NCBI GenBank assembly: GCA_030753015.1
Contig: JASMDC010000004.1
Span: 84,046-148,045 of the forward strand
Origin: Candidatus Undinarchaeales archaeon
GTDB taxonomy: Archaea; SpSt-1190; JASMDC01
DNA length: 64,000 bases
Direction: 5' to 3'
The notes beneath the pieces are model-generated. The model was not told the DNA's origin and searched no databases. It saw only the letters and a program-made list of their open reading frames with translations. Numbering within the stretch: the first letter of the stretch is position 1; each line of letters begins with the position of its first letter. A program made the position numbers and the translations under genes. Of the stretch, positions 3,119 through 29,431 are shown piece by piece.

Positions 3119-3295
3119 CTAATCTGTGCGAGGTTTGCCCTCTTCCGGATCGTCATCACTGGAAACACCCTTCTTGAATTCGGACCGTGCCCTGCCAAGT
3201 GACCTGGCGAGCTCAGGTATCCTCTTCGCTCCGAAGAGGAGGACCGCTACCAGTAATATGACCAGCCATTCCGAGAGACCGACAGAGAATACCAT
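3119..3295 (-). CDS. tatA: Twin-arginine translocase TatA (58 aa, below the ORF-track cutoff)
   Basis: MVFSVGLSEWLVILLVAVLLFGAKRIPELARSLGRARSEFKKG: TM helix, FG hinge and amphipathic helix typical of TatA. Confidence 0.92.
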   Translation of the reverse strand: MVFSVGLSEWLVILLVAVLLFGAKRIPELARSLGRARSEFKKGVSSDDDPEEGKPRTD

Positions 3296-3308
3296 GGTTT
3301 TTCACATC

Positions 3309-4640: not shown

Positions 4641-4656
4641 TCCTGGAACATATCAC

Positions 4657-5295: not shown

Positions 5296-5302
5296 GAATG
5301 TC

Positions 5303-8170: not shown

Positions 8171-8186
8171 GATAATCACCTTCCTC

Positions 8187-9212: not shown

Positions 9213-9213
9213 G

Positions 9214-9909
9214 CTAGAAACCCCCTTCGTATGACTCTTCCTCAATTCTGCCCATGATCGTTCCCTCCGGATAGATGTAGAACACGTGGGGATCGGTCCC
9301 GAGCTCGGGCTTCAGCACGATGGTCGGGTTCTGGCTGATGAGCTTGAAGGCCTCGCTATCGGGATCGGTTAGGTCGCCGAAGACGCGTGCCCTTCCCGTG
9401 CAGTTGTCTACACAGACGGGCTTCAGGCCCTTATCAACCCGGTGGGAGCAGAACGTGCACTTGTTCGCCACGCCATCGATCGGGTTGCGGAAGCGGGCGT
9501 CGTAGGGGCAGGCGACGATGCAGTAGCCGCACCCGACACAGATGTCGTAATCGATGAGCACGATGCCGTCGTCCCTCTTGTGGGCTGCCTTCGTGGGGCA
9601 GACGGAGACGCATGGGGGGTCCTCACAGTGGTTGCACAGGCGGGGAAGGAACTGCCGTGAGACGTTCGGGTACTTGCCTTGCTCCACATCCTTCACCCAT
9701 GCGCGCCATTTACCCTTGGGGACCTCGTACTCGCTCTTGCACGCTATTGTGCAGCTGTGGCACCCGGTGCATTTGCGCAGGTCGATGACCATGCCGTAAC
9801 GCGGTCCGGGGTGTGTGGGATGTCCCGCCAGCGACGATATAGGCACCATCGCTGCCGCGGCGGCGGTTGCGGCGACCGCCTTTACTACGTTCCGTCTCTT
9901 TTCGTCCAA
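9214..9909 (-). CDS. 4x[4Fe-4S] electron-transfer subunit, TtrB/PsrB-like
   Basis: TTG start after GGAGGG; Tat-like KRRNVVK; CTGCHSCTIAC, CNHCEDPPCVSVCP, CVGCGYCIVACPY, KCTFC. Confidence 0.92.
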   Translation of the reverse strand: MDEKRRNVVKAVAATAAAAAMVPISSLAGHPTHPGPRYGMVIDLRKCTGCHSCTIACKSEYEVPKGKWRAWVKDVEQGKYPNVSRQFLPRLCNHCEDPPCVSVCPTKAAHKRDDGIVLIDYDICVGCGYCIVACPYDARFRNPIDGVANKCTFCSHRVDKGLKPVCVDNCTGRARVFGDLTDPDSEAFKLISQNPTIVLKPELGTDPHVFYIYPEGTIMGRIEEESYEGGF

Positions 9910-11057: not shown

Positions 11058-13163
11058 TCACCCCTCCACGGCATACACGGTCCTCGTCCCGAACTCGGCT
11101 TTCTTTCCCTTGTTCCACTGACTCGTGGGCCTCAGGTACCCCACCACCCTCGAGAAGACCTCCGCTCTGCGCCCGCAGGTGGGACAAGTCTCATGCTCGC
11201 CTGCAAGATAGCCATGAGTGGGGCAGACGCTGAAAGTCGGGGTGAAGGTAATATAGGGTAGGCGGTAGTTCTCGCAGAGCCGTCGGACCAGGAGCTTGAC
11301 CGTGTCGGGGCTCAGGGGCATTTCACCTGCGAAGACGTGCAGGACCGTCCCCCCGGTGTACCGTGTCTGGAACTCGTCCTGCAGATCGAACGCCTCGAAC
11401 ACGTCGTCGGTGAAGTTCACGGGCAGGTGTGTGGAGTTGGTATAGAACGGCTCGGCCCCTTGGCCGTGGTGTTCCTCGTTGGCGCATATGATGGCGGGAT
11501 GCTTCTCCTTGTCGGCCTTGGCAAGCCTGTAGGACGCTCCCTCCGCAGGGGTGGCCTCGAGGTTGTAGTTGTTCCCCGTCTCCTCCTGGAACGTCACGAG
11601 CTTCTCCCTCATTGCGTCAAGGACCTTGAGCGTGAAGGCATGCCCGCGCTCGCTTGCGATGTTTTCTCCGAACAGGTTCAAGCAGGCCTCGTTCATCCCA
11701 ATGAGACCGATCGTCGAGAAGTGGTTCTTCCAGTATTCACCGAACCTTTCTTTGATATGGTCGAGGTAATGCTTCGTATATGGATAGAGGTCGTTCTCCG
11801 TGAACTTCTCCAGCGCCTTCCTCTTTATCTCAAGGCTCTCCCTGGCCAGGACCATCAGTGCGTCAAGGCGCTCCATGAACCCGTTCTCGTCATCGGCGAG
11901 AAAGCCGATCCTCGGCATGTTCAACGTGACCACACCGATGGAGCCTGTCAGTGGATTGGCGCCGAAGAGCGCGCCTCCCCTCTTCTCCAGGACCCGGTTG
12001 TCCAGTCGTAGCCGGCAGCACATCGAGCGGGCGTCCTCGGGACTCATATCGGAATTGATGAAGTTGGAGAAGTAGGGCACCCCGTACTTTGCCGTCATCT
12101 CCCACAATCCCTCCAACCGGGGATTTTCCCAGTCGAAATCCTTGGTGATGTTGTAGGTCGGGATCGGGAAGGTGAACACCCTCCCCTTGGCGTCCCCTTC
12201 CATCATCACTTCGAAGAGCGCTCTGTTGAAGATGTCCATCTCCTCTTGGAACTCCCGATAGGGCTCACTCTGCATGACGCCGCCGATAATGACGCCTTGA
12301 TCGGAATAGGCGCTCGGCACCGTCAGGTCCAGGGAAAGGTTCGTGAAAGGCGTCTGGAAACCCACTCTCGTGGGAACGTTCACGTTGAAGACGAACTCTT
12401 GGAGGCACTGCTTGACCTCTTTATAATTCAGCCCATCGTACCGTATGAAGGGGGCCAGGAGGGTGTCGAAATTGGATAGTGCCTGTGCACCAGCGGCCTC
12501 ACCTTGCAGCGTGTAGAAGAAGTTGACCACCTGTCCGAGAGCACTGCGAAAATGTCTAGCCGGATCGCTCTCCACCTTCCCCGGAACACCCCTGAATCCT
12601 TCCATCAGCAGTTGATGGAGGTCCCAGCCGACGCAGTAGACGGAGATGGTATTGAGATCATGGATGTGAAGGTCGCCGTTCACATGGGCCGCTCTCACCT
12701 CCGGCGGGTAGATGCTGTTCAACCAGTAGACCTTGCTGACCTCCGAGGATATGTAATTGTTCAATCCCTGCAATGAGAAGGCCATGTTGCTGTTCTCGTT
12801 GACCTTCCAATCGTTCAGCTCGAGATACTGGTCCACGAGGTCAACTCCTGCCTTCTCTGCGATCTCCCGCATCCGTGCATGTTGCTCTCGGTACAGGATG
12901 TACGCTTTGGCCGTCATGCGGTAGGGGGATGACAGCAGCACCTCCTCGACGACGTCCTGCACCTCTTCCACCGTCGGGACCTTGTGGGTGATCACCTGCT
13001 GGACAAGGCTCAGGACCTTCAGCGTAAGCCGCTTGGCGACCACCTCGTCGAACTCGCCCGTGGCCTCCCCGGCCCGCCGGATGGCGACCGTTATCTTTGC
13101 AGGATCGAACTTCCGGATCTTCCCGTCCCTCTTCCTAATTCTCTTGAATACATGGGGGGCCAT
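11058..13163 (-). CDS. nrdD: Class III (anaerobic) ribonucleoside-triphosphate reductase
   Basis: N-terminal ATP cone (IRKRDG..FDPAKI), YCVGW, RSMCCRL, EATPAEG, C-terminal CxxH..CxxC and glycyl-radical SRVVGYL. Confidence 0.95.
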   Translation of the reverse strand: MAPHVFKRIRKRDGKIRKFDPAKITVAIRRAGEATGEFDEVVAKRLTLKVLSLVQQVITHKVPTVEEVQDVVEEVLLSSPYRMTAKAYILYREQHARMREIAEKAGVDLVDQYLELNDWKVNENSNMAFSLQGLNNYISSEVSKVYWLNSIYPPEVRAAHVNGDLHIHDLNTISVYCVGWDLHQLLMEGFRGVPGKVESDPARHFRSALGQVVNFFYTLQGEAAGAQALSNFDTLLAPFIRYDGLNYKEVKQCLQEFVFNVNVPTRVGFQTPFTNLSLDLTVPSAYSDQGVIIGGVMQSEPYREFQEEMDIFNRALFEVMMEGDAKGRVFTFPIPTYNITKDFDWENPRLEGLWEMTAKYGVPYFSNFINSDMSPEDARSMCCRLRLDNRVLEKRGGALFGANPLTGSIGVVTLNMPRIGFLADDENGFMERLDALMVLARESLEIKRKALEKFTENDLYPYTKHYLDHIKERFGEYWKNHFSTIGLIGMNEACLNLFGENIASERGHAFTLKVLDAMREKLVTFQEETGNNYNLEATPAEGASYRLAKADKEKHPAIICANEEHHGQGAEPFYTNSTHLPVNFTDDVFEAFDLQDEFQTRYTGGTVLHVFAGEMPLSPDTVKLLVRRLCENYRLPYITFTPTFSVCPTHGYLAGEHETCPTCGRRAEVFSRVVGYLRPTSQWNKGKKAEFGTRTVYAVEG

Positions 13164-13770
13164 TACAATCTTCCTCTAATCCCAAGGAATCGGGGATGAG
13201 TTCCGCCCGGGGGTGGGGGTGGGTGGAAATGTCCTTCTTCGAAGGGGATAAAGATACAATAATTGATTCTTTATATTTCCATGCTTGGGGTTGTTGAGTT
13301 GCCATTCTTCACCTGCGGAAATCGTGTTTGATTGGGCTGCGGGTCATCGGTTTTCAGAGTCTTTATAAACGTCACGGCCGCGTGTTAAGGTATCCCTATT
13401 GATACTATTTATTTAATAGTTATCGGGATTCTGTCGATTTTACATTCCCTGCGGCCGAGGCCGGCTGATTCATGGAGATTTTGATGGAATGGACCGCTCC
13501 CACGTTCCCACTGGGTTTGCAGTGGCCCAGTTAATGTGATCTCCGAGAGCGGCGCCTTTAGAGTCATTACATTGGATTTGAGGTAGATGAAGGCGTCCCA
13601 TGAATCACTCTCAATGAGCGTCGCCTCTTTATTCCACCAGATGAAGGCCCTTGAGCATCCCTCCGGACAATAGTAGGCGGTTCAACGTTATATACAAAAG
13701 GAGGGTGGCATGCCGGTACTCAGGTGGATCTCGTACCTTTCGGATTTGGTTCCCCCCCGGGAAACACGAT

Positions 13771-14157
13771 ATTCATCCTACCCATGAATTTGTGGGCTTT
13801 CTAGATGCTCCGCCACTAGGCTGCAACGGCCAGGGCGGAGCTGGTCGAGGTGGAACCGAGGAACACGTCACGGATGTGCAGCCTGTGCGGGAACATCGTT
13901 CCCAGGGCGCGGATCAGCGCCCATCGGTGCCCGCATTGTGGGTCTGAGGAGCATTAGGACGTGAACGTCGCAGTGAACATTCTCGCAGAAACTAGGGCTG
14001 GACGAGCCCGAAGTCATGCCTGTGGAGATCCTGCCTCTACTCCCTCCCTGAACGCGGGGGCTAGCGGAGTCGACGAAACTGGAACTATACGCGGTTGTCC
14101 GCACGCCCGTGTGGTCACCGCTGGAAGCCCGTGGATTTATCCACGGGAGGATGTCAC
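13771..14157 (+). mobile_element. Decayed IS200/IS605-family element: tnpB 3' fragment, omegaRNA-like region and right end
   Basis: Frame from 13820 reads ELVEVEPRNTSRMCSLCG..HRCPHCGSEEH*DVNVAVNIL (TnpB Zn ribbon and RuvC-III, with TAG at 13955). It is followed by GCCTGTGGAGA..GGAACTATAC..GAAGCCCGTGGATTTATCCACGGGAGGATGTCAC (end hairpin, ending 14157). An inverted end-like motif ATTCATCC..GTGGGCTTTCT lies at 13771. Confidence 0.85.
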
Positions 14158-14264
14158 CTACAGTTTGACTTCAACGGCCCTTTGCGTCGGAATTCCTGCA
14201 TCGTATCCTGGCGCTCATGGGATGCCAATGTCGGGAGGCCCGGTCGCCCATGCGACTCCTACCA

Positions 14265-15512
14265 TCATTCCTGCTCGTGTTCGCACACGTCTCTGACGTC
14301 GTCCTGGGACAACGCCCGCCGCAGCTGCGCCGTGAGCACGGGTATCACCTCGTTCACGTCCCCCACGATACCGAAGTCGGTGTGGTCGAAGATGGGGGCC
14401 TCCGGATCGTTGTTGATGGCCACGATGACCTCCGATGTCTGCATGCCCGCCATGTGCTGGACGGCACCGGAGATGCCGCAGGCGATGTAGAGCCGTGGGC
14501 TGACTGTCCTGCCGCTCAGTCCGACCTGATGTGCGTGATCGGTCCAACCCTCGTCCACCAGCGGCCGGCTCACGCCAACCACGCCCCCCAGGAGATCCGC
14601 AAGCTCCCGGAGCATCAACAGTCCCTTCCGGTCACCAAGACCGCGCCCGCCGGCGACGACCACATCGGCGTCGACGATGCTCTCCTCCCGTACACCACAG
14701 ACGATGTCAAGGACACGGATGCGCTCGGTGAGGCCGGACAGGTCGGACACCTGACGCGCGATGTCGCCCTCGTGATGGGGGTTCGACAGCGGCCTGGGGA
14801 AGGTGCGCGGGCGCACGGTGGCCATCTGCGGCCGGCTGTCAGGGCAGACGATGGTGGCCATGACGTTGCCGCCGAAGGCGGGGCGCGTCTGGAGAAGGAG
14901 CCGTCGTCCCTCGTGCTCGCCAATTGCCAGACCGGTGCAGTCGGCCGTCAGTCCCGTTCGCAGTCGCACCGCCAGACGCGGGCCCAGGGATCTACCCAGG
15001 GAGGTGGCGCCGATCAGCAGGATGCTCGGACACACCTCGCCTACGAGCCCGGCCATCGCCGCTGTGAGGGCTTCCACGCGGGGATTGGTGAGGCAAGGGT
15101 CGTCGAGCAGAAGGACGCGGTCGGCCCCCGACATCACCAGGGAGCTGGCCAGTCCTTCATCAACTGGTCCCGGCAGGGCGCACACCAGAGGCTCGGCCAG
15201 CTCGTCGGCCAGCTCCCGGCCCTTGCTCAGGAGCTCGAAGGCAACGTCCCGCACGGCATCACCATCGCGCTCGGCGAATACCATGACACCACATCCTTCG
15301 TCAGGTCCCCGGCGCGGGACGGCCTCGCGAAGGATGAGCGCCACCTCGGGACAGGCTTTGATGCACGCACCGCACAGGCGGCAGCTATCGTCGATGACGG
15401 GGTACGGATCCAGCAAGACCGAGCCGAAGGGGCAGACGTCGCGACACACGCCGCATCGCGAGCACCGGTCGCGGTCCAGATCGATGGCGCCCTGATCCCT
15501 TTTGCCGCTCAT
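14265..15512 (-). CDS. etfA: Electron transfer flavoprotein alpha subunit with an N-terminal 2x[4Fe-4S] ferredoxin domain (CarE/LctC-like)
   Basis: CSRCGVCRDVCP and CRLCGACIKACP; TGLTADCT, RPAFGGN, RPQMATVRP, QVGLSGRTV, GISGAVQH. ATG at 15512 overlaps the etfB TGA. Confidence 0.92.
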   Translation of the reverse strand: MSGKRDQGAIDLDRDRCSRCGVCRDVCPFGSVLLDPYPVIDDSCRLCGACIKACPEVALILREAVPRRGPDEGCGVMVFAERDGDAVRDVAFELLSKGRELADELAEPLVCALPGPVDEGLASSLVMSGADRVLLLDDPCLTNPRVEALTAAMAGLVGEVCPSILLIGATSLGRSLGPRLAVRLRTGLTADCTGLAIGEHEGRRLLLQTRPAFGGNVMATIVCPDSRPQMATVRPRTFPRPLSNPHHEGDIARQVSDLSGLTERIRVLDIVCGVREESIVDADVVVAGGRGLGDRKGLLMLRELADLLGGVVGVSRPLVDEGWTDHAHQVGLSGRTVSPRLYIACGISGAVQHMAGMQTSEVIVAINNDPEAPIFDHTDFGIVGDVNEVIPVLTAQLRRALSQDDVRDVCEHEQE

Positions 15513-16339
15513 AGGCCGCCATCCCCTACGATGCGCTGTTCGAGGAGCACCTGGACGAGCCCGGAGACCGCGTCCTCGGGATCCCCGTCGAACACCCTGC
15601 CCCGTGCCCGCTTCGGCGGCGGGAACACACGTACTACGCGGGTCGGTGAGCCCGCGAGGCCCAGGCGCCGGATGTCCACGTCGAGGTCCTTGGCCGTCAG
15701 TACCTTGAAGGATCGCTCCCGGGCCGCCATCCATTGTTCGAGGTCGGGCATCCGCGGCTCATTGATCCCCTTGACGACGGTGACGAGGCAGGGGAGGTCC
15801 ACCACGAGCGTCTCGACCCGAAGGTCCAGCTCCCGCTCCACGGTGAGCGCCCCTTCATCCGGCCCCGAGACGGACGTGACATAGCACACGTGGGGTATCG
15901 CCAGGAGCTCGGCCAGTCCCGGCCCCACCTGACCAGTGTCCCCGTCGGTCGTCTTGGTACCGCAGAGGATCAGGTCGAACCGGCCGCACGCCGCCACACC
16001 TCGGGCGAGCGTGTAGGATGTAGCGAGGGTGTCAGCGCCGGCGAAGGCCCGGTCGGAGAGGAGCACAGCGCGATCGCAGCCTAGGGCCAGCGCGTACCGT
16101 AGAGCGTGCTCTGCCTGGGGCGGGCCCATGCTCAGCGCGGTCACCTCAGCGCTGCACCCCGTGGCCGCCAACCGCCCGCGTATGCGCACCGCTTCCTCGA
16201 GTGCATAGAGGTCGAAAGGGTTGAGCTGCGAGGCGACACCGGTGCGCTTCAGCGTCCCCGTCCCCTCGTCGGTCTCCACCGTCTCGGAGGCCGGCACCTG
16301 CTTGACACAGACAATGATGGAGAACGTATCGCCGGTCAC
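15509..16339 (-). CDS. etfB: Electron transfer flavoprotein beta subunit, bifurcating-type motifs
   Basis: CVKQVP, NPFD, DRAFAGADTLAT, DGDTGQVGP, GLAGSPTRV. GTG start overlaps the upstream TGA (GTGA). Confidence 0.92.
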   Translation of the reverse strand: MTGDTFSIIVCVKQVPASETVETDEGTGTLKRTGVASQLNPFDLYALEEAVRIRGRLAATGCSAEVTALSMGPPQAEHALRYALALGCDRAVLLSDRAFAGADTLATSYTLARGVAACGRFDLILCGTKTTDGDTGQVGPGLAELLAIPHVCYVTSVSGPDEGALTVERELDLRVETLVVDLPCLVTVVKGINEPRMPDLEQWMAARERSFKVLTAKDLDVDIRRLGLAGSPTRVVRVFPPPKRARGRVFDGDPEDAVSGLVQVLLEQRIVGDGGL

Positions 16340-18813
16340 GCGAGCACCTCCACCCGAGGGACGACCTTGCGGTACACCGCCTGCGGCGGGCAAAGGCGTC
16401 CGTCCACCGTGAGGAGCTCGCGCAGCGCAATGCCGAACAGCCGCTCGTTCTCCTCGAGGTAGGGTCTGATGAGCTCCCAGTCGTCGGCGGAGAGCTCGGT
16501 GAAGACGCCTCCGTTGAGCTGGCCCTCATCCAGCTGACTACGAGGATCGCGGATGTAGAGCGCGCCACCCGACGCGAGCGAGAACAGGTTCCCGCCGGAG
16601 AAGGGGGTGTCAAGCTCGTGCAGGGTGCCGTCTGGGAGGGCCGCAACGCCGTTGAGCACGGCGAAGCCGCCACCGGCAAGCGGATCGCCCGCCATGAAGC
16701 TCTCAGCCAGGTAGTCGAGGCAGGTGCCGTTGATGACCACCCGCGGACCCCCCACGGCGTTGATAAGGGGACGGCCCGCGGCGTTGCCCCGCACGTAGAC
16801 CTCGCCGCCCTTGGCGCCGTAGAGGAAGGTCTGTCCCACGTCCCCGTGGACCACCAGGCGTCCCGCGGCGAGGATCTGGCCCAACTGGTCCTGGCCATCG
16901 GCGTGGACGCGGACCTCGCCGTTCATGAGACCTGAGCCCAGGTAGTCGCCGGGGCTGCCGTACACGTCGATGATCACCGGCTCCTCCTGCCCCAAGAGCC
17001 CGCACCCCACGAACCGCTGGCCGCACAGGTCGAAGGCGATGATGTGCCGCCATCCGGCACGATAGGCGTCCACGATGGACCGGGAGAGGGAGTCTGGGCC
17101 CTCCATGGGATATCCCCTGCCGCGCACCACGAGGGTGGCTCCGGAGCCGGGTGGCGAGGGAACAGGGCCCGTCCCCGCGTGGCGGTGAAGCCCGCCCACG
17201 TCAGGTCCGGGGAGCACCATGGTGCGGAGGAGGAGGTCGTTGATCGCGCTCTCGATGAGCGTCCGACGCCATCCTGGTGAGACGTGCGGCGTGTCTACCC
17301 CGCGGTCCAGGAGCAGGGTGAGGAGCCCGAGCACGGTCCGGGGTCCAGGTCCTTCGGTGTCGTGGGCACTCGCGGCGAGCCCGCTCAGCAGGCCGCGCAG
17401 TCCGTCACTGGTCGCCCCTGCAAGCAGCGGGCGGAGCCACAAGAAGGCGCTTTCGACCCCGTTGCGTGCGAGGTGGGCCATCACCGTGTCCGCTGACGGG
17501 ATGGATCCGTTACGGGAGGAGGGCGTTGCTCGCGGACAGTCCACCTCACCACCGTACTTGTCGCGGCATACGAGCAGGCCGTCCTCCAGGGAGAACGCGA
17601 AGGCGCCACCATCGGTGTGGCTCCCGCCCCGGGCGTTCCAGTACAGGTCCGCCCGCGTCGGCACACCTGATCGCTCGCCGTGGATGTTCTCCAGCACGGC
17701 GTCGATGGCCTGCTTCTCGCTGGCGACGAGCCCGATATCCAGCTCCCCCCGCTGGAGGGCGAACACCTGGGGGCGGAGCATGGAGGTATCGGTGATGCCC
17801 ACCAGCTGCAGCAGGCCCCGGTCCGGCTTGGCGCGCCCGATGATGAAGAACCACGGGCCGTCGGGCGAGCCATGGATGTGGGTGCGCTGGATGGCTGCGT
17901 ACACCTCCTGCTTCCCTTCGGGCAGCATGAGGAAGTCACGCTCGGTGGTGGGGGCGAGCGCCTCGATGATGTACTCTAGCGGGTAGCCATACACTCTGTC
18001 CAGCAGGTCGAAGAGCTGGACGGACACCTCGGTGTCCGTGAGGAACAGGGGCGTCATCCCGTGCTGTCCCAGATAGTCGCGCACGCTCTGGTAGTTGGCG
18101 AAGTCACCGTTGTGCACTAGCGCCTCGTTGAGGCCAATGAAGGGGTGGGCGCCACCGGGGTGCCAGACCCTGCCCTTGGTTGGGTAGCGCTGGTGGGCGA
18201 TCCAGAGTCGGGCGTGAAGGTCGCCCAGGCGGTAGTTGGTGATTACCTGCTCGGCGAACCCGACTATCTTGAACACCAGAAGGTCCCGCCCGTGACAGAG
18301 CACGAAGGCCTGCGGGTCCGGGCGGTCAGTGTAGTAGGCGGTGTTGAGGGCGAAGGAGTTGGCGTGGACGAAGGCGTCCTCCTGCGAACGGCGGTCCAGG
18401 TCCGCAAACCCCCGCTCCGCGACGAACGCAGCCAGCTGCTCCTCCCGTGGTCGACAGAAGTACCGCCACACCTCGGGAGGCGGCACCTCCAGCCCCGGGA
18501 CGTCATGCCAGTCATCGATGGCAGGCACCCGTTCGGACCGGGCCACTGCAAACGGCCCGAGGACGTGCCGGTCCTCGACCTCCTCCCGGCACTCTGGATC
18601 CAGGTAGGCCACCTGGACGAGGTAGTGGGAGCGCAGAACCTCGGGCGACACTCCCAGCTGTGCCGGATCGAGGCCGGCGGCCACGATACCACCGCCCTTA
18701 CCGTTACCGCGGTTGTTCATCTGTCGGGCGGCCGCCTCCAGGTGCCGTCCGGCCACGGGCTCGGAGGCCAGGAACCCCACGACCCCGCATCCGCCCTCGG
18801 CCGGCTGTCTCAA
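16336..18813 (-). CDS. Glutamate synthase subunit: class II glutamine amidotransferase fused to a GXGXG domain
   Basis: GGAGGTGA RBS then TTG start (MRQPAEGG-CGVVG, Ntn catalytic Cys); HQRYPT, HPF, HNGD, TDTE; C-terminal GXGXG beta-helix (GDYLGSG, GDVGQTFLYGAKGG). Confidence 0.87.
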   Translation of the reverse strand: MRQPAEGGCGVVGFLASEPVAGRHLEAAARQMNNRGNGKGGGIVAAGLDPAQLGVSPEVLRSHYLVQVAYLDPECREEVEDRHVLGPFAVARSERVPAIDDWHDVPGLEVPPPEVWRYFCRPREEQLAAFVAERGFADLDRRSQEDAFVHANSFALNTAYYTDRPDPQAFVLCHGRDLLVFKIVGFAEQVITNYRLGDLHARLWIAHQRYPTKGRVWHPGGAHPFIGLNEALVHNGDFANYQSVRDYLGQHGMTPLFLTDTEVSVQLFDLLDRVYGYPLEYIIEALAPTTERDFLMLPEGKQEVYAAIQRTHIHGSPDGPWFFIIGRAKPDRGLLQLVGITDTSMLRPQVFALQRGELDIGLVASEKQAIDAVLENIHGERSGVPTRADLYWNARGGSHTDGGAFAFSLEDGLLVCRDKYGGEVDCPRATPSSRNGSIPSADTVMAHLARNGVESAFLWLRPLLAGATSDGLRGLLSGLAASAHDTEGPGPRTVLGLLTLLLDRGVDTPHVSPGWRRTLIESAINDLLLRTMVLPGPDVGGLHRHAGTGPVPSPPGSGATLVVRGRGYPMEGPDSLSRSIVDAYRAGWRHIIAFDLCGQRFVGCGLLGQEEPVIIDVYGSPGDYLGSGLMNGEVRVHADGQDQLGQILAAGRLVVHGDVGQTFLYGAKGGEVYVRGNAAGRPLINAVGGPRVVINGTCLDYLAESFMAGDPLAGGGFAVLNGVAALPDGTLHELDTPFSGGNLFSLASGGALYIRDPRSQLDEGQLNGGVFTELSADDWELIRPYLEENERLFGIALRELLTVDGRLCPPQAVYRKVVPRVEVLA

Positions 18814-21371
18814 CCCATCACCTCCTCGCCCAGTTCCCGGCCCTCGGCCATGAGGAGGAGCTCGGGATGTCCCCGCAGGTCGGCGATGGAGCCCAGACCC
18901 AGACCGAGGCAGATGGCCCGCAGCTGTGCCTCCCAGGAGCGCCGGAGGTTGACGATGCGCTGGCGACCCCACTGCGGATCTATGAGCGCCGCGCGCCGGG
19001 GATCAGTGGTGGTGATGCCCAGCGGGCACCCCCAGTCCTTCTCACAGCTCCCCAAGCGCTCGCAGCCCAGCGCCACGAGGTCCGCTGTCCCGACCATGGC
19101 CCCGTCGGCGCCCAGTGCCACAGCCTTGGCTATGTCGAACGCCGTCCGTACCCCGCCCGAGGCGATGAGCACCACCTCGTCGCGAACGCCCTCCGACTGC
19201 AGGAAGTCGTGTACCTTGGGGATGGCGTACTCCACGGGCATGGCGATGTTCTTCTTGCTCACCTCAGGGGCGGCGCCGGTGCCGCCGTAGGAGCCGTCGA
19301 GGTTGATGACGTTGCTCCCGGCGTGGTAGCTGCCCACCGCCACCATGTCGACGTCGGTGGGGGTGGACACCTTGGTGATGACCAGGGCGTCGGGATTGAT
19401 GGACCTGATCCAGTCGATGTGCTTCTTGTGGTCCTCCACCGAGTACACCGAGTGGAAGGGGAAGGGGGAGAACAGGGAGATGCCGGGGACCGAGCCCCGG
19501 GCGATGGCCACGGCCTTGGACACCTTCTCGGCGAGGAGGTGGCCGCCCAGCCCGGGCTTGGCACCCTGGGCGTACTTGAACTCCACCACGGGCACGCTGG
19601 CGATGGTCTCCTCGCTCACCCCGAACAGCCCGGTCGCCACCTGGGTGATGACGTGATCGCGGTAGGGGACCAGCTCCCGGGGAAATCCGCCCTCGCCCGT
19701 GGACACCAGGCTCCCGGTGTCCGCCGATGCCATGGCGCGGGCGAGCATGACGTTGCTGGAGATGGAGCCGAAAGACATCCCGCCGCCGTACAGGGGCATG
19801 CGCAGGGTGTACTGGGGACCGTTGCTCCGACGGTTGAGGGGGAGGGCGAGATCCACCGACCGGTCGACGGTCCCGCGCTCCATGAGCGCATCAAGGTCCG
19901 TACCATCGGTCTCGAAGGGAAGGAAGAGGGCATCGAACCCGCCGCCAGAGCGACCGGCACGGTAGTCAATGGAGCTTGCCGGGGGATGGCCGGTCCGGGC
20001 CTGCTCGATGGTGGCGCGCAGGAGCTCAGGTGTCCAGCGCATATCGCCGATCAGGCCCTCGCGGAAGCCGCCGGCCCGGTCACGCAGGGGAGACCCGGCG
20101 GGGAGCCTCCCCGTCACCAGTTCCCTGAAGGCGGCCTCCTCGTGGGCGTAGAAGATGACGCGGCCCGTCTCCCCGCGCAGCCGTCGCACCTCCCGCATCC
20201 CCATGGCGCCCAGCACCTCCAGCAGCTGGTTGCGCCAGGCGGCCATGAGGTTGCAGATATGGGCGGCACCCTCTGTGGGTTCGACATCGCCGTGCTCCAC
20301 GGGACAGGGGTACCGGGTGTCGGCCCAGAGCATGCACCCGAGCGCCACCATGAGCGCGAGGTCCACGGTGACCGCGTCAGCGCCGCACGCCAGCGCCTTG
20401 GGCACGTGCTCGGCATCGGCGATCCCGCCGCTAAAAAGCACCGTCACGGCGTCTCGACTCTCTGCCTCCAGCAGCAGCCTGTGGAGCCGGTGAAGAGTGC
20501 GGCCGGCGAAGCGACCCGATCCGTCCCGGTCCCGGGCATGGTGGTCGGCGTTGAGGTGGATCCAGTCAAGCTCTACGCCACCAGCCACCAGGGCGGCGAG
20601 GGCGTCGGCAGCGCGGAGCGTGCACGGTGCCCGCACGCCCACTAAGGCGTCGGGAGCGAGGTCCCTGAGCACGCCAAGGAGATCGACGACCGTCTCCCTG
20701 TCCAGCTCGTCATTGTCCAGGCTGAGTTCGATGGCAGGGAGGCCCGCGGAAGCGAGCTCGTTCACACGCTCGACCTGGCTCGCCTCGATCCGGAGCACGA
20801 CCGAGTGACGGAACGGTTCACGGTCCTCCCCCCACTGGGACACGGGCACCACCGCCAGTGTCCCGACATCCTGTGCTGCACGCAGCACGGACAGGTGGGC
20901 GCCCCGGCCCGAGGTCGGGATGTTGGGGAGCTCGAAGAGCACGGGGAGTGGAAGGTCGATGTGGGGCGGCATCTCGGTGGCTACCCTGCCGTCGGGATGG
21001 AACCGGAGGAAGGACGGCGCCCGTCCGAGCTGAACGGTCGTCGAGATGTACTCGCGCCCGTGGATGCCGTCCCGGGTGGGCCGCACGATCTCGGACATGT
21101 CGAACCAGATGCTGTCGAAACCAACACCCGCGAACCGACCCCCATACCCAGCCCCGGAGATGGGGATGCGGCCGGTGACGGCCTGGTAATGGGTGCGGCT
21201 GAGCACTTGGGATGTCCAGTGGGGATCACCACCCCTGCCGATGTCGAAGGCAAGGCGTCCGAACCGTACGTAATCATCGACCTTCTGGAGGTGGAAACGG
21301 GTGGGCAGCCCCGTCGGCTCCACTTGCCGGACCGCTATGGTATACCTGCCCGAGCCTGCTGGGTTGACCAT
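18810..21371 (-). CDS. Glutamate synthase FMN-domain subunit with two tandem FMN-binding (GltB2-like) domains
   Basis: Domain 1: GFDSIWFDMSEIVRP..FSGGIADAEHVPKALACGADAV. Domain 2: GGMSFGS, TGEGG, QVATGLFGV, KYAQGAKPGLGGHL, SGGVR, CERLGSCEKDWGCPLGITT. Confidence 0.85.
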   Translation of the reverse strand: MVNPAGSGRYTIAVRQVEPTGLPTRFHLQKVDDYVRFGRLAFDIGRGGDPHWTSQVLSRTHYQAVTGRIPISGAGYGGRFAGVGFDSIWFDMSEIVRPTRDGIHGREYISTTVQLGRAPSFLRFHPDGRVATEMPPHIDLPLPVLFELPNIPTSGRGAHLSVLRAAQDVGTLAVVPVSQWGEDREPFRHSVVLRIEASQVERVNELASAGLPAIELSLDNDELDRETVVDLLGVLRDLAPDALVGVRAPCTLRAADALAALVAGGVELDWIHLNADHHARDRDGSGRFAGRTLHRLHRLLLEAESRDAVTVLFSGGIADAEHVPKALACGADAVTVDLALMVALGCMLWADTRYPCPVEHGDVEPTEGAAHICNLMAAWRNQLLEVLGAMGMREVRRLRGETGRVIFYAHEEAAFRELVTGRLPAGSPLRDRAGGFREGLIGDMRWTPELLRATIEQARTGHPPASSIDYRAGRSGGGFDALFLPFETDGTDLDALMERGTVDRSVDLALPLNRRSNGPQYTLRMPLYGGGMSFGSISSNVMLARAMASADTGSLVSTGEGGFPRELVPYRDHVITQVATGLFGVSEETIASVPVVEFKYAQGAKPGLGGHLLAEKVSKAVAIARGSVPGISLFSPFPFHSVYSVEDHKKHIDWIRSINPDALVITKVSTPTDVDMVAVGSYHAGSNVINLDGSYGGTGAAPEVSKKNIAMPVEYAIPKVHDFLQSEGVRDEVVLIASGGVRTAFDIAKAVALGADGAMVGTADLVALGCERLGSCEKDWGCPLGITTTDPRRAALIDPQWGRQRIVNLRRSWEAQLRAICLGLGLGSIADLRGHPELLLMAEGRELGEEVMG

Positions 21372-21524
21372 CTCGATGCCTTGCCGGGGTTGGCACTATG
21401 CCAATCTAATATACTGATATTGGACTCTAGATATATAACACTGAAAGAAAATAATAAAATTGGAAATAAATTTATAGTAATTAACGAAAATAATTAACAA
21501 AGTAGAAAAATCGAGGGAAATACC

Positions 21525-22025
21525 GTGCCACAGATTACGAAACATTCCATCGATGCCACGGACCTGCGCATCCTGGACCTCCTCATGGACGATGCCCGAC
21601 GCACCTACCGTCAACTTGCCGACGAGGTCGGTGTGTCACCGGTAACGGTGATGAAGCGCGTCCACAGCATGGAGCGCACGGGCGTCGTCCAGGGCTATAC
21701 TGCGCGGCTGGACTACCAGGCACTGGGATACGACATCCTGGCCATCATCCAGCTGCGGATCTCTAAGGGGAAGCTCCTGGAGGTGGAGAAGCGCATCGCC
21801 ACCCACAACGCCGTGTTCGCCGTGTACGACATCATCGGCCCCTTCGATGCACTGCTGCTGACGCGGTTCCGCACGACACCAGACATGGACCGGTTCCTTA
21901 AGACCATCCAGACCTACGATTTCGTGGAGCGGACCGAGACTATACTGGTGCTGAACACGATCAAGGACGAGCCGCTGCGGGTAGGGGAGGACCGGTCTCC
22001 CCCGCTGCCGCCGCGCCTGCCGTAG
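21525..22025 (+). CDS. Lrp/AsnC-family transcriptional regulator, divergent from the glt-etf operon
   Basis: IDATDLRILDLLMDDARRTYRQLA HTH and C-terminal RAM domain; AT-rich intergenic region 21400-21520. Confidence 0.92.
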   Translation: MPQITKHSIDATDLRILDLLMDDARRTYRQLADEVGVSPVTVMKRVHSMERTGVVQGYTARLDYQALGYDILAIIQLRISKGKLLEVEKRIATHNAVFAVYDIIGPFDALLLTRFRTTPDMDRFLKTIQTYDFVERTETILVLNTIKDEPLRVGEDRSPPLPPRLP

Positions 22026-22082
22026 CAGGGGGCCAGTGCTCCTGAGCGGTCTGCGTGACCCCCCAGGACCTGTGCGAGCCGT

Positions 22083-23144
22083 TCACGGGGGCCTGGCCAC
22101 GCGGTCCCCACTGAAGGCGACGATGTGCGCTGGGGCCGCCGTCACGCTGACCCTCGTTCCTCGCTCGACCAACAAGGTGGAGGGACGGCTGCTGTGCACC
22201 AGCTTCCCCGAGGCGAGGCTCAGGGTGTAGATGTTCTCCGAGCCCCTGAACTCCTGTCCTTCCACGACCGCTCCACCCTGGTCATCCACCGTGAACGTGA
22301 TGTCATCGGGCCTGATCATGAGCTGAACGTCCGATCCCTCCGCCAATCCCGCTTTGTTCGGGAACACACCCAGTTCGGTCTCGATGCCCTCCTTTTCCAC
22401 GAGGCCGTCGATGAAATCGGCCTGCCCCACGAAGTCTGCGACAAAGCGGGTGGATGGGAAATGATAGATCTCCTCCGGGGTTCCGACCTGCTCGGTCCGC
22501 CCAGCGTTCAGCACGGCCACGCAGTCGGCCATGGAGAAGGCCTCCGCCTGGTCGTGCGTCACCAGGATCGCGGTGGAGTGTGCCTTTTTCAGGATGTTCA
22601 GCACCTCGTCCCGCATCTGGGCACGCATGTCGGCATCGAGGTTGCTGAGAGGTTCATCCAGTAGTATGACCACCGGACAGGGGGCAAGCGCCCTGGCCAG
22701 GGCGACGCGTTGCTGCTGGCCGCCGGAGAGCTGGTGCGGATAGCGATCCCCCAATCCCTCCAGCCCGACGAACTCCAGCATGTTATCAACGATCTTCTCA
22801 CTCTTCTCCCTGTCGAACCCGGTCAGCCCATAGGCGATGTTGTCCTTCACCCTCAGGTGGGGGAACAGGGCGTAGCCCTGGAACACCATGCCGACATTCC
22901 GCCTATTGGGGGGGATGAACACCCCGCCGCCGGCGACGGGCTCACCGTCGATCAGTATCTCACCGCTGTCCGGTGTCTCCACTCCGGCGATCAGGCGGAG
23001 GGCCGTGGTCTTCCCGCATCCGCTGGGACCGAGGAAGGCAAATATCTCCCCCTTCTCCACCGTAAAGGACATGTCATCGATTGCCTTCACGTCGTCGTAG
23101 CTCTTGGCCACGTTCCTCAATTCGATTCTCGTCATAGATCCCAT
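22083..23144 (-). CDS. fbpC: Fe3+ ABC transporter ATP-binding protein
   Basis: GPSGCGKT, LSGGQQQRVALARAL, LLDEP, C-terminal TOBE domain. Confidence 0.88.
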   Translation of the reverse strand: MGSMTRIELRNVAKSYDDVKAIDDMSFTVEKGEIFAFLGPSGCGKTTALRLIAGVETPDSGEILIDGEPVAGGGVFIPPNRRNVGMVFQGYALFPHLRVKDNIAYGLTGFDREKSEKIVDNMLEFVGLEGLGDRYPHQLSGGQQQRVALARALAPCPVVILLDEPLSNLDADMRAQMRDEVLNILKKAHSTAILVTHDQAEAFSMADCVAVLNAGRTEQVGTPEEIYHFPSTRFVADFVGQADFIDGLVEKEGIETELGVFPNKAGLAEGSDVQLMIRPDDITFTVDDQGGAVVEGQEFRGSENIYTLSLASGKLVHSSRPSTLLVERGTRVSVTAAPAHIVAFSGDRVARPP

Positions 23145-23274
23145 CCCCCTCGTCCTCGGGACGTCACTTCAGGGCCCTCCTGCAAAGGTCCTTGCCGTAA
23201 CCCGATCGTGCATCGAGCGAGTCCAGCAGGGCCGTATGGAGGCCCACGTCGTCATCATAATCTCCATCACGGAT

Positions 23275-24882
23275 TCACCCGTTCTCATCGCTGCCCGGTT
23301 CCTGGGAGAGGATGATCATCATGGAGAGGGCCGAAACGCCCACCAATAGAAGTGCCGGGATCGCGGCACGTGCAAAGTAGACATCGTCCGTGGCTGACCA
23401 CACGCGGGTCGCCAGGGTGCTGAAGCCCGTGGGCGCCAGGAGGAGCGTCGCCGGGAGCTCCTTCATGGTAGTGAGGAACACAAGGGACGCGCCGGTGAGC
23501 AGGCCTGGGGAGATAAGGGGCAGGGTAACCGTACGCATGGCACGCCAGGGCGTGGCACCCAGGCTCCGGGCCGCCTCCTCCAGCTGGGGGCTCAACTGCA
23601 GGAGGGATGCGCGGATCGTGCCCACAGCCTGGGGGATGAACAGCACCACATAGGCGAAGATGAGCATGGCCGTGGACTGGTAGAGGGGCATGGCGTACGT
23701 TACGCCGAAGAACACCAGGGAGAGGGCGACCACGATGCCCGGTAGGGCGAATCCGATGTAGGTGCTCCGCTCCAGCAGGTTGCTGAGCAGTCCAGGGAAC
23801 CGCACCGAGAGCGAGGCTACGGGAATTGCTGCGAGCATGGCAACGAGGGCCGTCAGTCCGGAGACGTAGATGGAGTTCGCGGCGAGATGCCATACGGGAG
23901 TGAGCTGCTCCCCGGCGGAGAGCCCGCGCACAAGCCAATAGGTGATCACGCTCAGGGGCATCACCAGCGACAATCCCACGATTGTTGTGCAGAAGAGCAG
24001 GGCAGGCCAACGCCAGCGGCCCAGCTCGACAGTACCGGGGGATCTCCTGGAGCCTGTGCCGCTGGTGTAGTACCTGCCCCCGCTGCGGGCCAGGTATTCC
24101 AAGATGAGGAGAATTGCCGCTAGCCCGACCAGGGAGATGGAAAGAACGGCCGCCATGCTCCGATCGAAGCTGGACTGGTACTGGATGTAGATGACCCTGG
24201 TGAATGAGTCGAAGCGCATCAGGGAGGGCGTCCCGAAGTCTCTCAGGGTGTAGAGGGCCACCAACAGCCCACCCGCCGCGATGGAGGACTTGAGGAGGGG
24301 GAGGGTCACCCGAATGAAAGTCTGCCAGCGACCGTGCCCGAGGCTGCGCGAGGCCTCCTCGAGGGCCGGGTCGAGGGAAAGCAGGCTGGCACGCACGGTC
24401 AGGAGGACGTAGGGATAGCTGAAGAGGGTGAGCGACAGCAGCGCACCGGGCCATCCGTAGATGGACGGCAGCCGCTGTACACCGAGCAGCTCGAGCCATG
24501 TCTGGAGGATGCTCCCCTTGGGGCCGAGGGCGGCGATGATGGCGAAGCTCCCCACGTAGCTGGGGATAACCAGGGGGAGTGCCGTGGCCACCGACCAGAA
24601 CCGTCTTCCCGGGAGGTCCGTCCGCACCGTGAGGAAGGCAAGGGGCACGGCGATGAGGGTGGACGCAACGGTGACGGCGAGGGCAAGGAGTGCGCTGTTG
24701 ACAAAGACCCGGATCGTGCGGGGATGGAGGAGGAGATCCCAGACGCCATCCCCTACACCGGCCGTGCGGATGACCAGATAGGCGAGCGGGAACAGCATGG
24801 CAGAGGCGACGAGGATGGAGGCGAGGACCAGGGGAAGGGGGGGCCTGGGTGAGGGGATGAGGCGCGTCAGCAACGTCACCAT
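23275..24882 (-). CDS. fbpB: Fe3+ ABC transporter permease
   Basis: Two permease halves, each with an EAA motif (LEEASRSLG; LEEAARSLG). Confidence 0.88.
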   Translation of the reverse strand: MVTLLTRLIPSPRPPLPLVLASILVASAMLFPLAYLVIRTAGVGDGVWDLLLHPRTIRVFVNSALLALAVTVASTLIAVPLAFLTVRTDLPGRRFWSVATALPLVIPSYVGSFAIIAALGPKGSILQTWLELLGVQRLPSIYGWPGALLSLTLFSYPYVLLTVRASLLSLDPALEEASRSLGHGRWQTFIRVTLPLLKSSIAAGGLLVALYTLRDFGTPSLMRFDSFTRVIYIQYQSSFDRSMAAVLSISLVGLAAILLILEYLARSGGRYYTSGTGSRRSPGTVELGRWRWPALLFCTTIVGLSLVMPLSVITYWLVRGLSAGEQLTPVWHLAANSIYVSGLTALVAMLAAIPVASLSVRFPGLLSNLLERSTYIGFALPGIVVALSLVFFGVTYAMPLYQSTAMLIFAYVVLFIPQAVGTIRASLLQLSPQLEEAARSLGATPWRAMRTVTLPLISPGLLTGASLVFLTTMKELPATLLLAPTGFSTLATRVWSATDDVYFARAAIPALLLVGVSALSMMIILSQEPGSDENG

Positions 24883-25148
24883 CGGATCAGTCTCCAGATG
24901 TTACAGTGCATGTTTTATCGTTTCCCCTCCTTCGACGTGACTGGCGCTCATCCCGCGGGACGTGCCCCCCGCCGGAGGGTCGGGGCTCTCGTGCTTCACC
25001 CCTTTCGTCCGTGCGTTGCCGGCCTCGGACTCCGCGTGCATCCTCCACAGGCACGACCCGCCGCTCACATGGTCACCTCGGGAGGTCGGTTCCGGCAGCG
25101 GGCGGGAGTGGCGGCCCCCACCCACGCTTGCGGATCCCTGTCCTCCCG

Positions 25149-26234
25149 CTACAGGGCACCAACATCCTGAAGGAGCTTCAGCGTCCCCCTCAGATCGTCC
25201 AGGTCGCTCAGGTCGATGTCCGGCGAATTGATGTCCGAGAGGCGCTTCTGCGGTCCGAGCACGCTCGTTCCATTGACCAGCGGGTACTCGTAGGTCTGCG
25301 TGGCGTAGGAGGTCTGTGCTCCCTCGTTGAGCATGAACCCGATGAACCTCTCTGCAAGCGCTTGATCAGTTGAGGTGTCAACGATCCCCAGCCCCGCCAC
25401 GTTGATCATGGAGCCGGCGTCGCCCGTGGTGTAGTGGTGCGCTACGGGGAACCCGGGGTCCTCCGCTTGGAAGCGGTGGAGGTAGTAGTTGTTCACGAAG
25501 CCTACGTGGATCTCTCCGCGGCCAAGGGCCGCGACGATGGGTGAGTTCTTGGGGTAGACCTGGGGCTCGTTGGCTATGATCCCTGTCAACCACTCCCGCG
25601 CCTTCTCCTCGCCCTCGAGCACCCTGAAGGCGGTGATGAATGACTGGAAAGAGCCGTTTGTCGGCGCCCAGCCGATCTTACCACCGCCCCATTTCTCCTC
25701 GACGAACCCCCAGATGGAGTCGGGAAGCTCCTCCTTGCTCACCAGCTTCATGTTGTAGTCGACCGTCCTCGCCCTGCCGGAAATGCCGATCCATTTCCCC
25801 GAGCGGGAGCGAAATCGAGGCTCCACACGCTGCAAGAGCGCGTCGGAGAGTGTGGACAGGCGTCCCTCCTTGGAGAGTGCGCCGAGCGCCCCTGCGTCCT
25901 GAGCGAAGAAGAGGTCGGCAGGGCTGTTCTTTCCCTCCTCCAGGATCGTGGCGGTCAGCTCGGCCGTCTTGCCGTACCGAACCTCGGTCTTGATGCCTGT
26001 CTCCTCCTTGAACTTGTCGATCATAGGGCCGACAAGGCTCTCCCCGCGACCGGAATAGATTGTCAGTGTCGGCGGTTCGGCCGAGACGCTCCCGCCGGCC
26101 GGCCCCTGTTTCAGACAACCTGCGGTCGCGACGCCCAGTGCCGCCACGCCCAGGTATTTCACGAGTGTCCGCCTATTCATCACGGTGTAGCCGGGTTCAG
26201 GATTGTCGAGCGTTGGGGTGAACATGGTCATCAC
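25149..26234 (-). CDS. fbpA: Fe3+ ABC transporter substrate-binding lipoprotein (FbpA/FutA-like, Tat-lipobox signal)
   Basis: NRRTLVKY..VATAGC signal; IYSGR, EEGKNSPADLFFAQDAG, NNYY Fe-ligand Tyr pair. The true start may be MNRR at about 26180. Confidence 0.88.
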   Translation of the reverse strand: MMTMFTPTLDNPEPGYTVMNRRTLVKYLGVAALGVATAGCLKQGPAGGSVSAEPPTLTIYSGRGESLVGPMIDKFKEETGIKTEVRYGKTAELTATILEEGKNSPADLFFAQDAGALGALSKEGRLSTLSDALLQRVEPRFRSRSGKWIGISGRARTVDYNMKLVSKEELPDSIWGFVEEKWGGGKIGWAPTNGSFQSFITAFRVLEGEEKAREWLTGIIANEPQVYPKNSPIVAALGRGEIHVGFVNNYYLHRFQAEDPGFPVAHHYTTGDAGSMINVAGLGIVDTSTDQALAERFIGFMLNEGAQTSYATQTYEYPLVNGTSVLGPQKRLSDINSPDIDLSDLDDLRGTLKLLQDVGAL

Positions 26235-29430: not shown

Positions 29431-29431
29431 G

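Follow-up and report, generated by a model that had tools for sequence, protein, structure and literature searches.

How are electrons supplied to a glutamate synthase (GOGAT, or GltS) whose operon lacks gltD and encodes an electron-transfer flavoprotein (ETF) in its place? The question is raised by a four-gene operon on the minus strand of a 64,000-nucleotide stretch of contig JASMDC010000004.1 from a Candidatus Undinarchaeales archaeon, the whole of which we call the window; the operon spans window positions 14265-21371. The portion of PMC8097209 that we consulted distinguishes three glutamate synthase classes, namely NADPH-dependent enzymes with GltD, ferredoxin-dependent enzymes and fused NADH-dependent enzymes, and describes a core that takes up one electron at a time at its [3Fe-4S] cluster, from the GltD clusters or from ferredoxin in the characterised enzymes. 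On the evidence set out below, the operon probably encodes a GltD-less, two-polypeptide glutamate synthase that has the co-translated EtfBA as its dedicated electron-input module. The full bifurcating version of this proposal, in which NADH-driven glutamate synthesis would be coupled to ferredoxin reduction, is a serious but tentative possibility.

Architecture of the operon

The first gene, gltB-long (21371-18810, minus strand, ATG start), encodes an 853-residue protein (GltB-long) that combines a central-like domain (residues ~1-440) with an FMN/[3Fe-4S] synthase domain (residues ~450-845). It is followed by the gene of an 825-residue GATase-GXGXG subunit (gat; 18813-16336, minus strand, TTG start), comprising a class-II (Ntn) glutaminase, a helical linker and a C-terminal β-helix, then by etfB (16339-15509, minus strand, GTG start), which codes for a 276-residue EtfB of the two-FAD/NADH-binding type, and by etfA (15512-14265, minus strand, ATG start), whose 415-residue product carries an N-terminal 2×[4Fe-4S] ferredoxin domain. 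Start and stop codons overlap by four bases at all three junctions (TTGA, GTGA and ATGA on the coding strand), and GGAGGTG-like ribosome-binding motifs precede the two upstream junctions. EtfB and EtfA are the only redox proteins co-translated with the GOGAT core.

The initial annotation, made from the sequence, had described the same four minus-strand genes and the same overlaps, in agreement with the open reading frames and with the Pfam domains, and an NCBIfam search returned the same domain calls for all four proteins. It had presented the first gene as an FMN-domain GltB, which is accurate as regards the FMN domain and incomplete as regards the central-like domain fused to it. Its statement that the operon contains no gltD, acyl-CoA dehydrogenase, FixC or lactate dehydrogenase is borne out by the annotation of the surrounding genes: we found no gltD, acyl-CoA dehydrogenase, FixC/ETF-QO or GlcD-type dehydrogenase gene in the operon or flanking it.

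The glutamate synthase core

GltB-long matches the Pfam family Glu_synthase (PF01645) over residues 515-825 with an E-value of 1.6e-97 (bit score 327.5, cut-off 20.4), and its FMN domain aligns with the GltS α chains of 7MFM, 2VDC, 1EA0 and 6S6S with E-values of 2e-49 to 3e-48. The three [3Fe-4S] cysteines line up with the cluster loop in 7MFM and 2VDC, allowing for one additional residue, and C770, C776, C782 and P783 are invariant among 45 sequences. The N-terminal 440 residues have no significant Pfam match. Since an AlphaFold model of full-length GltB-long (pLDDT 77.5, pTM 0.84) matches GltS α chains over ~900 columns in a structure search (E-values of 1e-24 to 1e-22), and since relatives of GltB-long carry a precomputed match to Glu_syn_central (PF04898), this N-terminal half is predicted to be the counterpart of the GltS central domain. 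Two cysteines beyond the cluster set, C346 and C356, are nearly invariant in the fused form.

The GATase-GXGXG protein matches GXGXG (PF01493, 3.5e-11) and GATase_6 (6.9e-7) in Pfam. The string E6-G7-G8-C9-G10-V11 is invariant among 17 sequences and places Cys9 behind a short propeptide. Alignment with GlmS (1XFF) shows conservation of the Arg, Asn-Gly and Asp positions, which we take to be the glutamine-binding positions of GlmS-type Ntn glutaminases. The top matches of the model (pLDDT 83.4, pTM 0.89) are again GltS α chains, aligned at both their ends across ~1550 columns (E-value of 2e-12); its glutaminase fold also matches GlmS and PurF, and its C-terminal half aligns with the C-terminus of GltS α. 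The order GATase-central-FMN-GXGXG on a single chain of ~1500 residues is replaced here by two polypeptides of 853 and 825 residues in a permuted order. Judged from sequences and predicted models, the two polypeptides together would rebuild a complete GltS α subunit that is split and permuted without being degraded, and the GOGAT core appears complete and apparently competent.

The electron-transfer flavoprotein

EtfB belongs to the Pfam ETF family (PF01012, 2.9e-42). Its similarity to bifurcating ETFs, with E-values of 1.7e-68 for LctB (7QH2), 2.8e-56 for the Acidaminococcus protein, 1.2e-55 for CarD, 2e-55 for the Clostridioides difficile protein and 4.4e-53 for FixA (7KOE), far exceeds that to the non-bifurcating ETFs of human, Paracoccus and Methylophilus (2.4e-24 or weaker). 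It contains the strings AGADTLATS and DGDTGQVGP within residues 96-108 and 130-140, the latter at 132-140; DGDT(A/G)QVGP is the recognition motif of the bifurcating FAD (b-FAD) and is absent from non-bifurcating ETFs, according to the sections of PMC9232219 consulted. EtfA matches the Pfam families ETF (2.2e-39) and ETF_alpha (5e-35) together with several Fer4 families, and has two CxxCxxCxxxC motifs starting at residues 17 and 44. Its alignment with CarE (6FAH; 5.1e-100) begins at residue 10 and thus includes the ferredoxin domain, and E-values range from 5e-100 to 1e-74 against bifurcating ETFs and are 1.9e-39 or weaker against non-bifurcating ones. The same sections of PMC9232219 describe the N-terminal ferredoxin domain of EtfA as a relay between the b-FAD and external ferredoxin, and report that CarE and LctC, ETFs with such a domain, work in bifurcation or confurcation.

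The operon ETF is thus, by its sequence, of the two-FAD, NADH-binding (bifurcating) type, for which we assume the name group 2, with LctB, CarE and Bcd-ETF as its nearest characterised relatives; the initial annotation had assigned it to the bifurcating type, and these scores, the DGDTGQVGP string and the two 4Fe-4S motifs agree. The partners with which bifurcating ETFs have been characterised comprise acyl-CoA dehydrogenases, quinone reductases and one lactate dehydrogenase. No known partner class (acyl-CoA dehydrogenase, GlcD-type lactate dehydrogenase or FixCX/ETF-QO) is encoded beside the operon ETF, whose neighbours are the two GOGAT genes.

The enzyme family and its neighbouring redox genes

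Relatives of the GATase-GXGXG subunit occur in at least 592 species (one genome per species), among them Chloroflexota, Desulfobacterota, Planctomycetota, Thermoplasmata, Methanomassiliicoccales and ANME-1. Gene neighbourhoods were taken from the best 80 of these loci, only ~34 of which have full 8-kb flanks. An FMN-type gltB usually lies directly upstream of the GATase-GXGXG gene, mostly in a short form, and the fused long form as in the window is present at 8 of the 80 loci. At five of the seven annotated short-form loci the central-like domain is a separate gene of ~460 codons just upstream (L181:5297-6844, L016:5005-6384, L054:5049-6446, L022:4977-6377 and L047:4957-6378), with a weak match to the end of the Glu_synthase profile. 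A glutamine synthetase gene (glnA) adjoins the genes at L020, L085, L022 and L208, and therefore the family fits a role in a glutamine synthetase-GOGAT (GS-GOGAT) pathway.

The redox genes beside the short forms differ from locus to locus. GlcD-like proteins (FAD_binding_4/FAD-oxidase_C) fused to a 4Fe-4S dicluster are encoded at L179:3501-5459, L035:3266-5131 and L054:3134-5092, MTHFR-like proteins at L016:4071-4991 and L047:4036-4941, and glnA together with FlpD/MvhD at L022:3110-4973. As far as can be read from neighbouring genes, the electron supply of the split glutamate synthase family looks modular.

Adjacent etfBA genes were found at two of the best 80 loci, L013 and L060, and a third such locus, L177, came from the phylum of L013, where the GATase-GXGXG gene is present in 16 of 201 sampled genomes and, among the 15 besides L013, an ETF accompanies it in one (L177) and in none of the other 14. 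In the class of L060, gltB is present in 21 of 201 genomes, 13 of them with the long form, and no ETF was found at the 11 newly fetched long-form loci (0/11). One pair of loci in these sets is identical (L203 and L056), and further duplicates between locus sets are possible. All four ETF-linked loci, the window included, are of the long form.

L013 and L177 have the same four-gene order as the window, and the divergent Lrp regulator of L177 is 43% identical to that of the window over its full length. L060, from an Anaerolineales bacterium, has the order etfB-etfA-gltB-gat with a four-base overlap between etfA and gltB. The gene-neighbourhood search proposed in the initial annotation, for etfAB beside gltB without gltD, hence gave a divided answer: the linkage recurs in L013, L177 and L060 with overlapping genes, and it is rare and absent from a same-genus genome. 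Downstream of etfA, L013 (10197-11372) and L177 (8922-10097) also encode a 391-residue protein with two CCG (HdrD/GlcF-like) domains, next to an OsmC-like gene; no counterpart of the 391-residue protein was found in the host genome of the window at an E-value of 1e-10.

Phylogeny of the linked genes

We compared a tree of concatenated EtfB and EtfA (73 rows) with a GltB tree (20 rows, LG+C20 model); the window, L060 and several other rows form long branches in both. The window, L013 and L177 group together on the ETF tree (SH-aLRT 99), and the same archaeal trio groups on the GltB tree with supports of 94/93. The GltB of L060 nests beside ETF-less Anaerolineae (95/92). A single clade of the four ETF-linked GltBs is rejected (AU p 0.0047), and a single clade of the four linked ETFs is compatible with the data (p 0.41). 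Because a single GltB clade is rejected and L060 nests among ETF-less Anaerolineae, the ETF-GOGAT pairing has arisen or been retained in two or more GltB lineages, with overlapping genes in every case.

We read the linkage as functional because of the gene order shared with L013 and L177, the overlap in L060, the agreeing trees of the archaeal trio and the rejection of a single GltB clade. The ETF tree also bears on the phylogenetic comparison suggested in the initial annotation: the window ETF stands apart from the second, ETF-QO-linked ETF of the host, which falls with the outgroup, and its nearest metagenomic relatives reside in acyl-CoA dehydrogenase operons.

A residue signature of ETF-linked GltBs was considered and rejected. 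Residue 687 (window ~19311-19313) is Asn in all four ETF-linked proteins and His in all 16 ETF-less long forms, and about half a column of this kind is expected by chance by a rough estimate; 14 GltB columns are private to the archaeal trio, and the L060 GltB lies on a long branch.

Partners available in the host genome and expression

The host genome assembly comprises 3.85 Mb in 117 contigs (98.9% complete, 5% contamination) and encodes ribosomal protein S8e, which marks it as archaeal. It has one full Glu_synthase gene, that of the window, and two Fer4_20 (GltD-like) genes. One of the latter is followed by a DHO_dh+Fer4_21 gene in a PreT/PreA-like context, and the other follows a PyrK-like gene within a cluster of NuoE, NuoF and formate-dehydrogenase-like genes, an NfnAB-like context. 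From these contexts both GltD-like genes are predicted to belong to other systems, leaving no free GltD partner, which extends the absence of gltD noted for the operon to the whole genome; because no GltD accompanies it, the operon enzyme does not qualify as an NADPH-GltS. The second host ETF lies in an operon of thiolase, acyl-CoA dehydrogenase, EtfB, EtfA and ETF-QO, and the window ETF is the only bifurcating-type ETF of the genome. The genome also encodes four glutamate dehydrogenases (GDH) and one glutamine synthetase, as well as four proteins of the pyruvate:ferredoxin oxidoreductase (POR) family and Rnf/Nqr subunits, which point to a ferredoxin economy in the host; no [NiFe] hydrogenase was found in the genome.

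Near-identical copies of the stretch 12600-22500, sharing at least 0.98 of the words sampled, are present in 11 DNA runs of marine or seawater origin from six studies, some of which may be the source of the assembly; metagenomes from the sea commonly contain the host organism. Three metatranscriptome runs, belonging to two studies, yielded RNA-library contigs with 99-100% identity to the operon, on etfA at 14284-14508, 14719-14885 and 14889-15393, on gat at 18095-18282, 18544-18718 and 18647-18841, and on gltB at 20148-20329, 20549-20726, 20915-21074 and 21083-21233.

Two further explanations of the operon's composition were considered and set aside. The GC content of the operon (0.682) is exceeded by only 0.2% of 957 genome windows, but composition makes no strong case for recent gene transfer; because the third-position GC of 0.81-0.86 equals that of the neighbours, the excess resides in amino-acid composition. 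Halophily was rejected, the proteins having pI values of 4.9-5.8 and an ordinary share of Asp and Glu.

A candidate mechanism

We infer one complex of the four proteins, with NADH as the donor and with electron splitting. In such a complex, NADH would reduce the b-FAD of EtfB, from which one electron would pass via the mobile domain holding the second FAD (a-FAD) to the [3Fe-4S] cluster and on to the FMN of GltB. There, 2-iminoglutarate, formed from 2-oxoglutarate and from ammonia delivered by channelling from the second subunit's Ntn glutaminase, would be reduced to glutamate. The low-potential electron of the b-FAD semiquinone would reach free ferredoxin by way of the pair of [4Fe-4S] clusters in the N-terminal domain of EtfA. 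The sum would be 2 NADH + oxidised ferredoxin + 2-oxoglutarate + glutamine → 2 NAD+ + reduced ferredoxin + 2 glutamate. Exergonic glutamate synthesis would in this way recharge ferredoxin, and an Rnf-type complex could reoxidise the reduced form.

The energetics allow bifurcation. The GltS cofactors lie at -190 to -280 mV (PMC8097209). By approximate arithmetic from standard free energies, the 2-oxoglutarate + glutamine/glutamate couple lies far above NADH, at roughly -50 to -130 mV, in much the same range as the acceptors that known ETF bifurcases use. A glutamate synthase that runs on NADH and reduces ferredoxin during nitrogen assimilation would represent a new class of flavin-based electron-bifurcating enzyme, a conclusion that we can at present entertain only as possible.

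Alternative explanations

Several findings weigh against a dedicated, bifurcating ETF-GOGAT, and most of them lend weight to one of the alternatives considered here. Independently of these alternatives, the four glutamate dehydrogenase genes suggest a glutamate supply that does not depend on the operon. The RNA-library contigs leave 15579-17233, which includes etfB, without a match, though this gap is uninformative either way, and the contigs may be DNA carry-over, none bridging a junction by a 31-letter rule. The ETF of the operon could replace GltD without bifurcating, so that both NADH electrons reach GltB's [3Fe-4S] cluster and its FMN via the a-FAD, the tethered 2×[4Fe-4S] domain or both, in a plain NADH-dependent GOGAT that neither reduces ferredoxin nor saves energy. 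We regard this as somewhat unlikely, even though all of the linkage evidence applies to it equally. The ETF-less relatives are probably fed by ferredoxin-like donors, their short-form GltBs having Fer4 motifs or Fer4 neighbours, which makes it plausible that a tethered ferredoxin domain docks at the same site. The cofactor potentials given in the part of PMC8097209 consulted (-280 mV for the [3Fe-4S] cluster, or -190 mV with 2-oxoglutarate bound, and -240 mV for the FMN) are low, so the high-potential branch of a bifurcating enzyme would not be very high, and the span of -190 to -280 mV suits direct reduction by donors at the level of NADH. Clostridium propionicum has an ETF that does not bifurcate despite its close kinship with bifurcating ones (PMC9232219, as far as its consulted sections go), and the NCBIfam models of the acryloyl-CoA reductase ETF (AcrA/AcrB) score well on the operon proteins, below their cut-offs. 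However, CarE and LctC, both of the characterised ferredoxin-domain ETFs that we checked, bifurcate or confurcate, and a complete two-FAD ETF would be more machinery for passing on two electrons than GltD needs. The EtfA of L060, which lacks the ferredoxin domain, cuts both ways: it counts against the ferredoxin-reducing scheme, and it also argues that the domain is not a general connector to GltB.

Alternatively, the two halves of the operon might have no physical coupling, the split GOGAT being ferredoxin-dependent and the ETF serving another enzyme, with the shared operon reflecting co-regulation or an accident of gene transfer. An orphan acyl-CoA dehydrogenase gene of the host (contig C73, 62975-64186), beside a 3-hydroxyacyl-CoA dehydrogenase gene and without an adjacent ETF, could supply the real partner, in the manner of a Bcd-Etf. 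The ETF linkage is rare, at 3 of ~105 related loci, or 4 of 20 distinct long-form loci when the window is counted, and because of this rarity the split-GOGAT family evidently works without an ETF as a rule. The operon also looks accessory within its genus: a same-genus genome that is 99% complete contains neither an operon gene nor a real GOGAT FMN gene, and in the order of L013 the operon is patchy, in two of four genomes. From the side of the ETF, no gltB lies near any of the 80 EtfA relatives that are nearest in metagenomes (41-51% identity), and among the 12 annotated loci of such relatives an acyl-CoA dehydrogenase gene precedes the ETF in all nine with at least 46% identity; the remaining three lie between ybeY and hisG. 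We nevertheless consider a lack of coupling unlikely. In three lineages and in two gene orders, a start codon that overlaps a stop codon ties the ETF genes to the GOGAT genes, the linkage is independent on the GltB tree by the AU test, ETF and GltB co-diverge in the archaeal trio, and the other acyl-CoA dehydrogenase operon of the host brings its own ETF and ETF-QO. Least probable, and very unlikely, is that the enzyme runs in reverse or is not a GOGAT at all, either because glutamate and reduced ferredoxin reduce NAD+ by confurcation, as in Ldh-EtfAB, or because it belongs with relatives that transfer amines or amides, for example N-methylglutamate synthase, whose domains are the same. Confurcating LctB is the nearest relative of EtfB, and with its four GDH and four POR-family genes the host looks like an amino-acid fermenter; against this, the glutaminase retains its catalytic positions and the invariant propeptide-Cys, the glnA genes adjoining relatives suggest a GS-GOGAT role, an Lrp regulator is adjacent, and glutamine hydrolysis renders the glutamate synthase reaction practically one-way.

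Flanking genes and other features of the genome

Divergent from gltB-long, as the initial annotation had stated, an AsnC/Lrp-family regulator of 166 residues is encoded on the plus strand at 21525-22025 (Pfam HTH_AsnC-type, 3.7e-14; AsnC_trans_reg, 6.4e-12). The AT-rich gap of 153 bp between the two genes (21372-21524, assigned to neither strand) has TATA-like runs in its sequence, is the sole non-coding gap within the gene set and may serve as promoter. Further out, the operon is flanked by NrdD, an anaerobic ribonucleotide reductase (11058-13163), and by an ABC transporter (22083-26234). Within the non-coding stretch between nrdD and etfA, 13156-13660 and 13805-14160 match two different same-genus contigs at 77-79% identity, while nrdD itself has no match in the same-genus genome, and RNA-library contigs from two runs cover 13160-13658 at the highest depth of the stretch examined. 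The stretch has no Rfam match, an Rfam search of the window returned none either, and the small open reading frames in it have no Pfam match; it may hold a repeated element or a small RNA.

Elsewhere in the window, a molybdopterin oxidoreductase cluster occupies 2218-9909 on the minus strand (DMSO-reductase-family catalytic subunit, 4Fe-4S subunit, NrfD anchor, NarJ-like chaperone, MoeA and a further Fe-S protein), and a similar cluster is present on host contig C73. A 478-residue protein encoded at 28210-29646 consists of DUF438, hemerythrin and two DUF2249 domains. On host contig C84 (97000-111000, locus L201), two glutamate dehydrogenase genes stand beside a cluster whose genes resemble those of NuoE, NuoF, formate dehydrogenase, PyrK and GltD and which by its gene content looks like an Nfn/Bfu-type bifurcating module.

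Significance and comparison with known systems

We know of no characterised ETF-GOGAT complex, as the initial annotation had remarked, and full-text searches of the main texts of freely accessible papers found no description of an ETF-linked glutamate synthase. If the proposal holds, an ETF-fed enzyme would add a fourth way of electron supply to glutamate synthase, and bifurcating ETFs would gain a new type of partner, namely a biosynthetic Fe-S flavoenzyme that receives electrons via its [3Fe-4S] cluster. Should ferredoxin be reduced in the process, central nitrogen assimilation would be an energy-conserving step in energy-limited anaerobes, and some anaerobic archaea and Chloroflexota would, in assimilating ammonia, save energy from the large drop between NAD(P)H and 2-iminoglutarate. 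The operon may be a case of a wider rule, as split GOGATs lie beside ETF, MTHFR-like, FlpD/MvhD-like and GlcD-FeS modules, an arrangement that fits GOGAT as a general high-potential sink.

Among glutamate synthases, the window proteins share all four α-subunit domains with the NADPH-GltS GltB/GltD of Azospirillum brasilense (1EA0, 2VDC and 6S6S) and Bacillus subtilis (7MFM), whereas their α subunit comes as two permuted pieces, central+FMN and GATase+GXGXG, and EtfBA takes the place of GltD. The ferredoxin-dependent enzyme of Synechocystis (1OFD, 1LLW) is a single chain of 1500 residues that accepts electrons from free ferredoxin without a dedicated flavoprotein; the window core would allow ferredoxin input, but its ETF is translationally coupled. 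The three-gene split ('archaeal-type') glutamate synthases have the same GATase-GXGXG fusion and FMN GltB together with a separate central-like gene of ~460 codons, whereas the window joins the central-like and FMN pieces in one protein and has an ETF as the adjoining redox module.

Among ETF systems, the caffeyl-CoA reductase-Etf complex CarCDE of Acetobacterium woodii (6FAH) provides the protein most like the window EtfA, CarE, with its 2×[4Fe-4S] domain, and a CarD related to EtfB at the E-value given above; its partner is the acyl-CoA dehydrogenase-type CarC, whereas that of the window ETF would be an Fe-S flavoenzyme entered via a [3Fe-4S] cluster. The window EtfB is most like LctB of the A. 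woodii lactate dehydrogenase-EtfAB complex LctBCD (7QH2), with which it shares the b-FAD motif. That complex differs from the proposed one in its GlcD-type FAD partner, its one-cluster EtfA and its physiological confurcation, and resembles it in the modest potential of its high-potential couple, lactate/pyruvate, at about -190 mV. The nearest ETF clade, at 46-51% identity, comprises Bcd-EtfAB (5OL2 from Clostridioides difficile, 4KPU from Acidaminococcus) and the metagenomic operons of acyl-CoA dehydrogenase with EtfBA, from which the window operon differs in having no acyl-CoA dehydrogenase.

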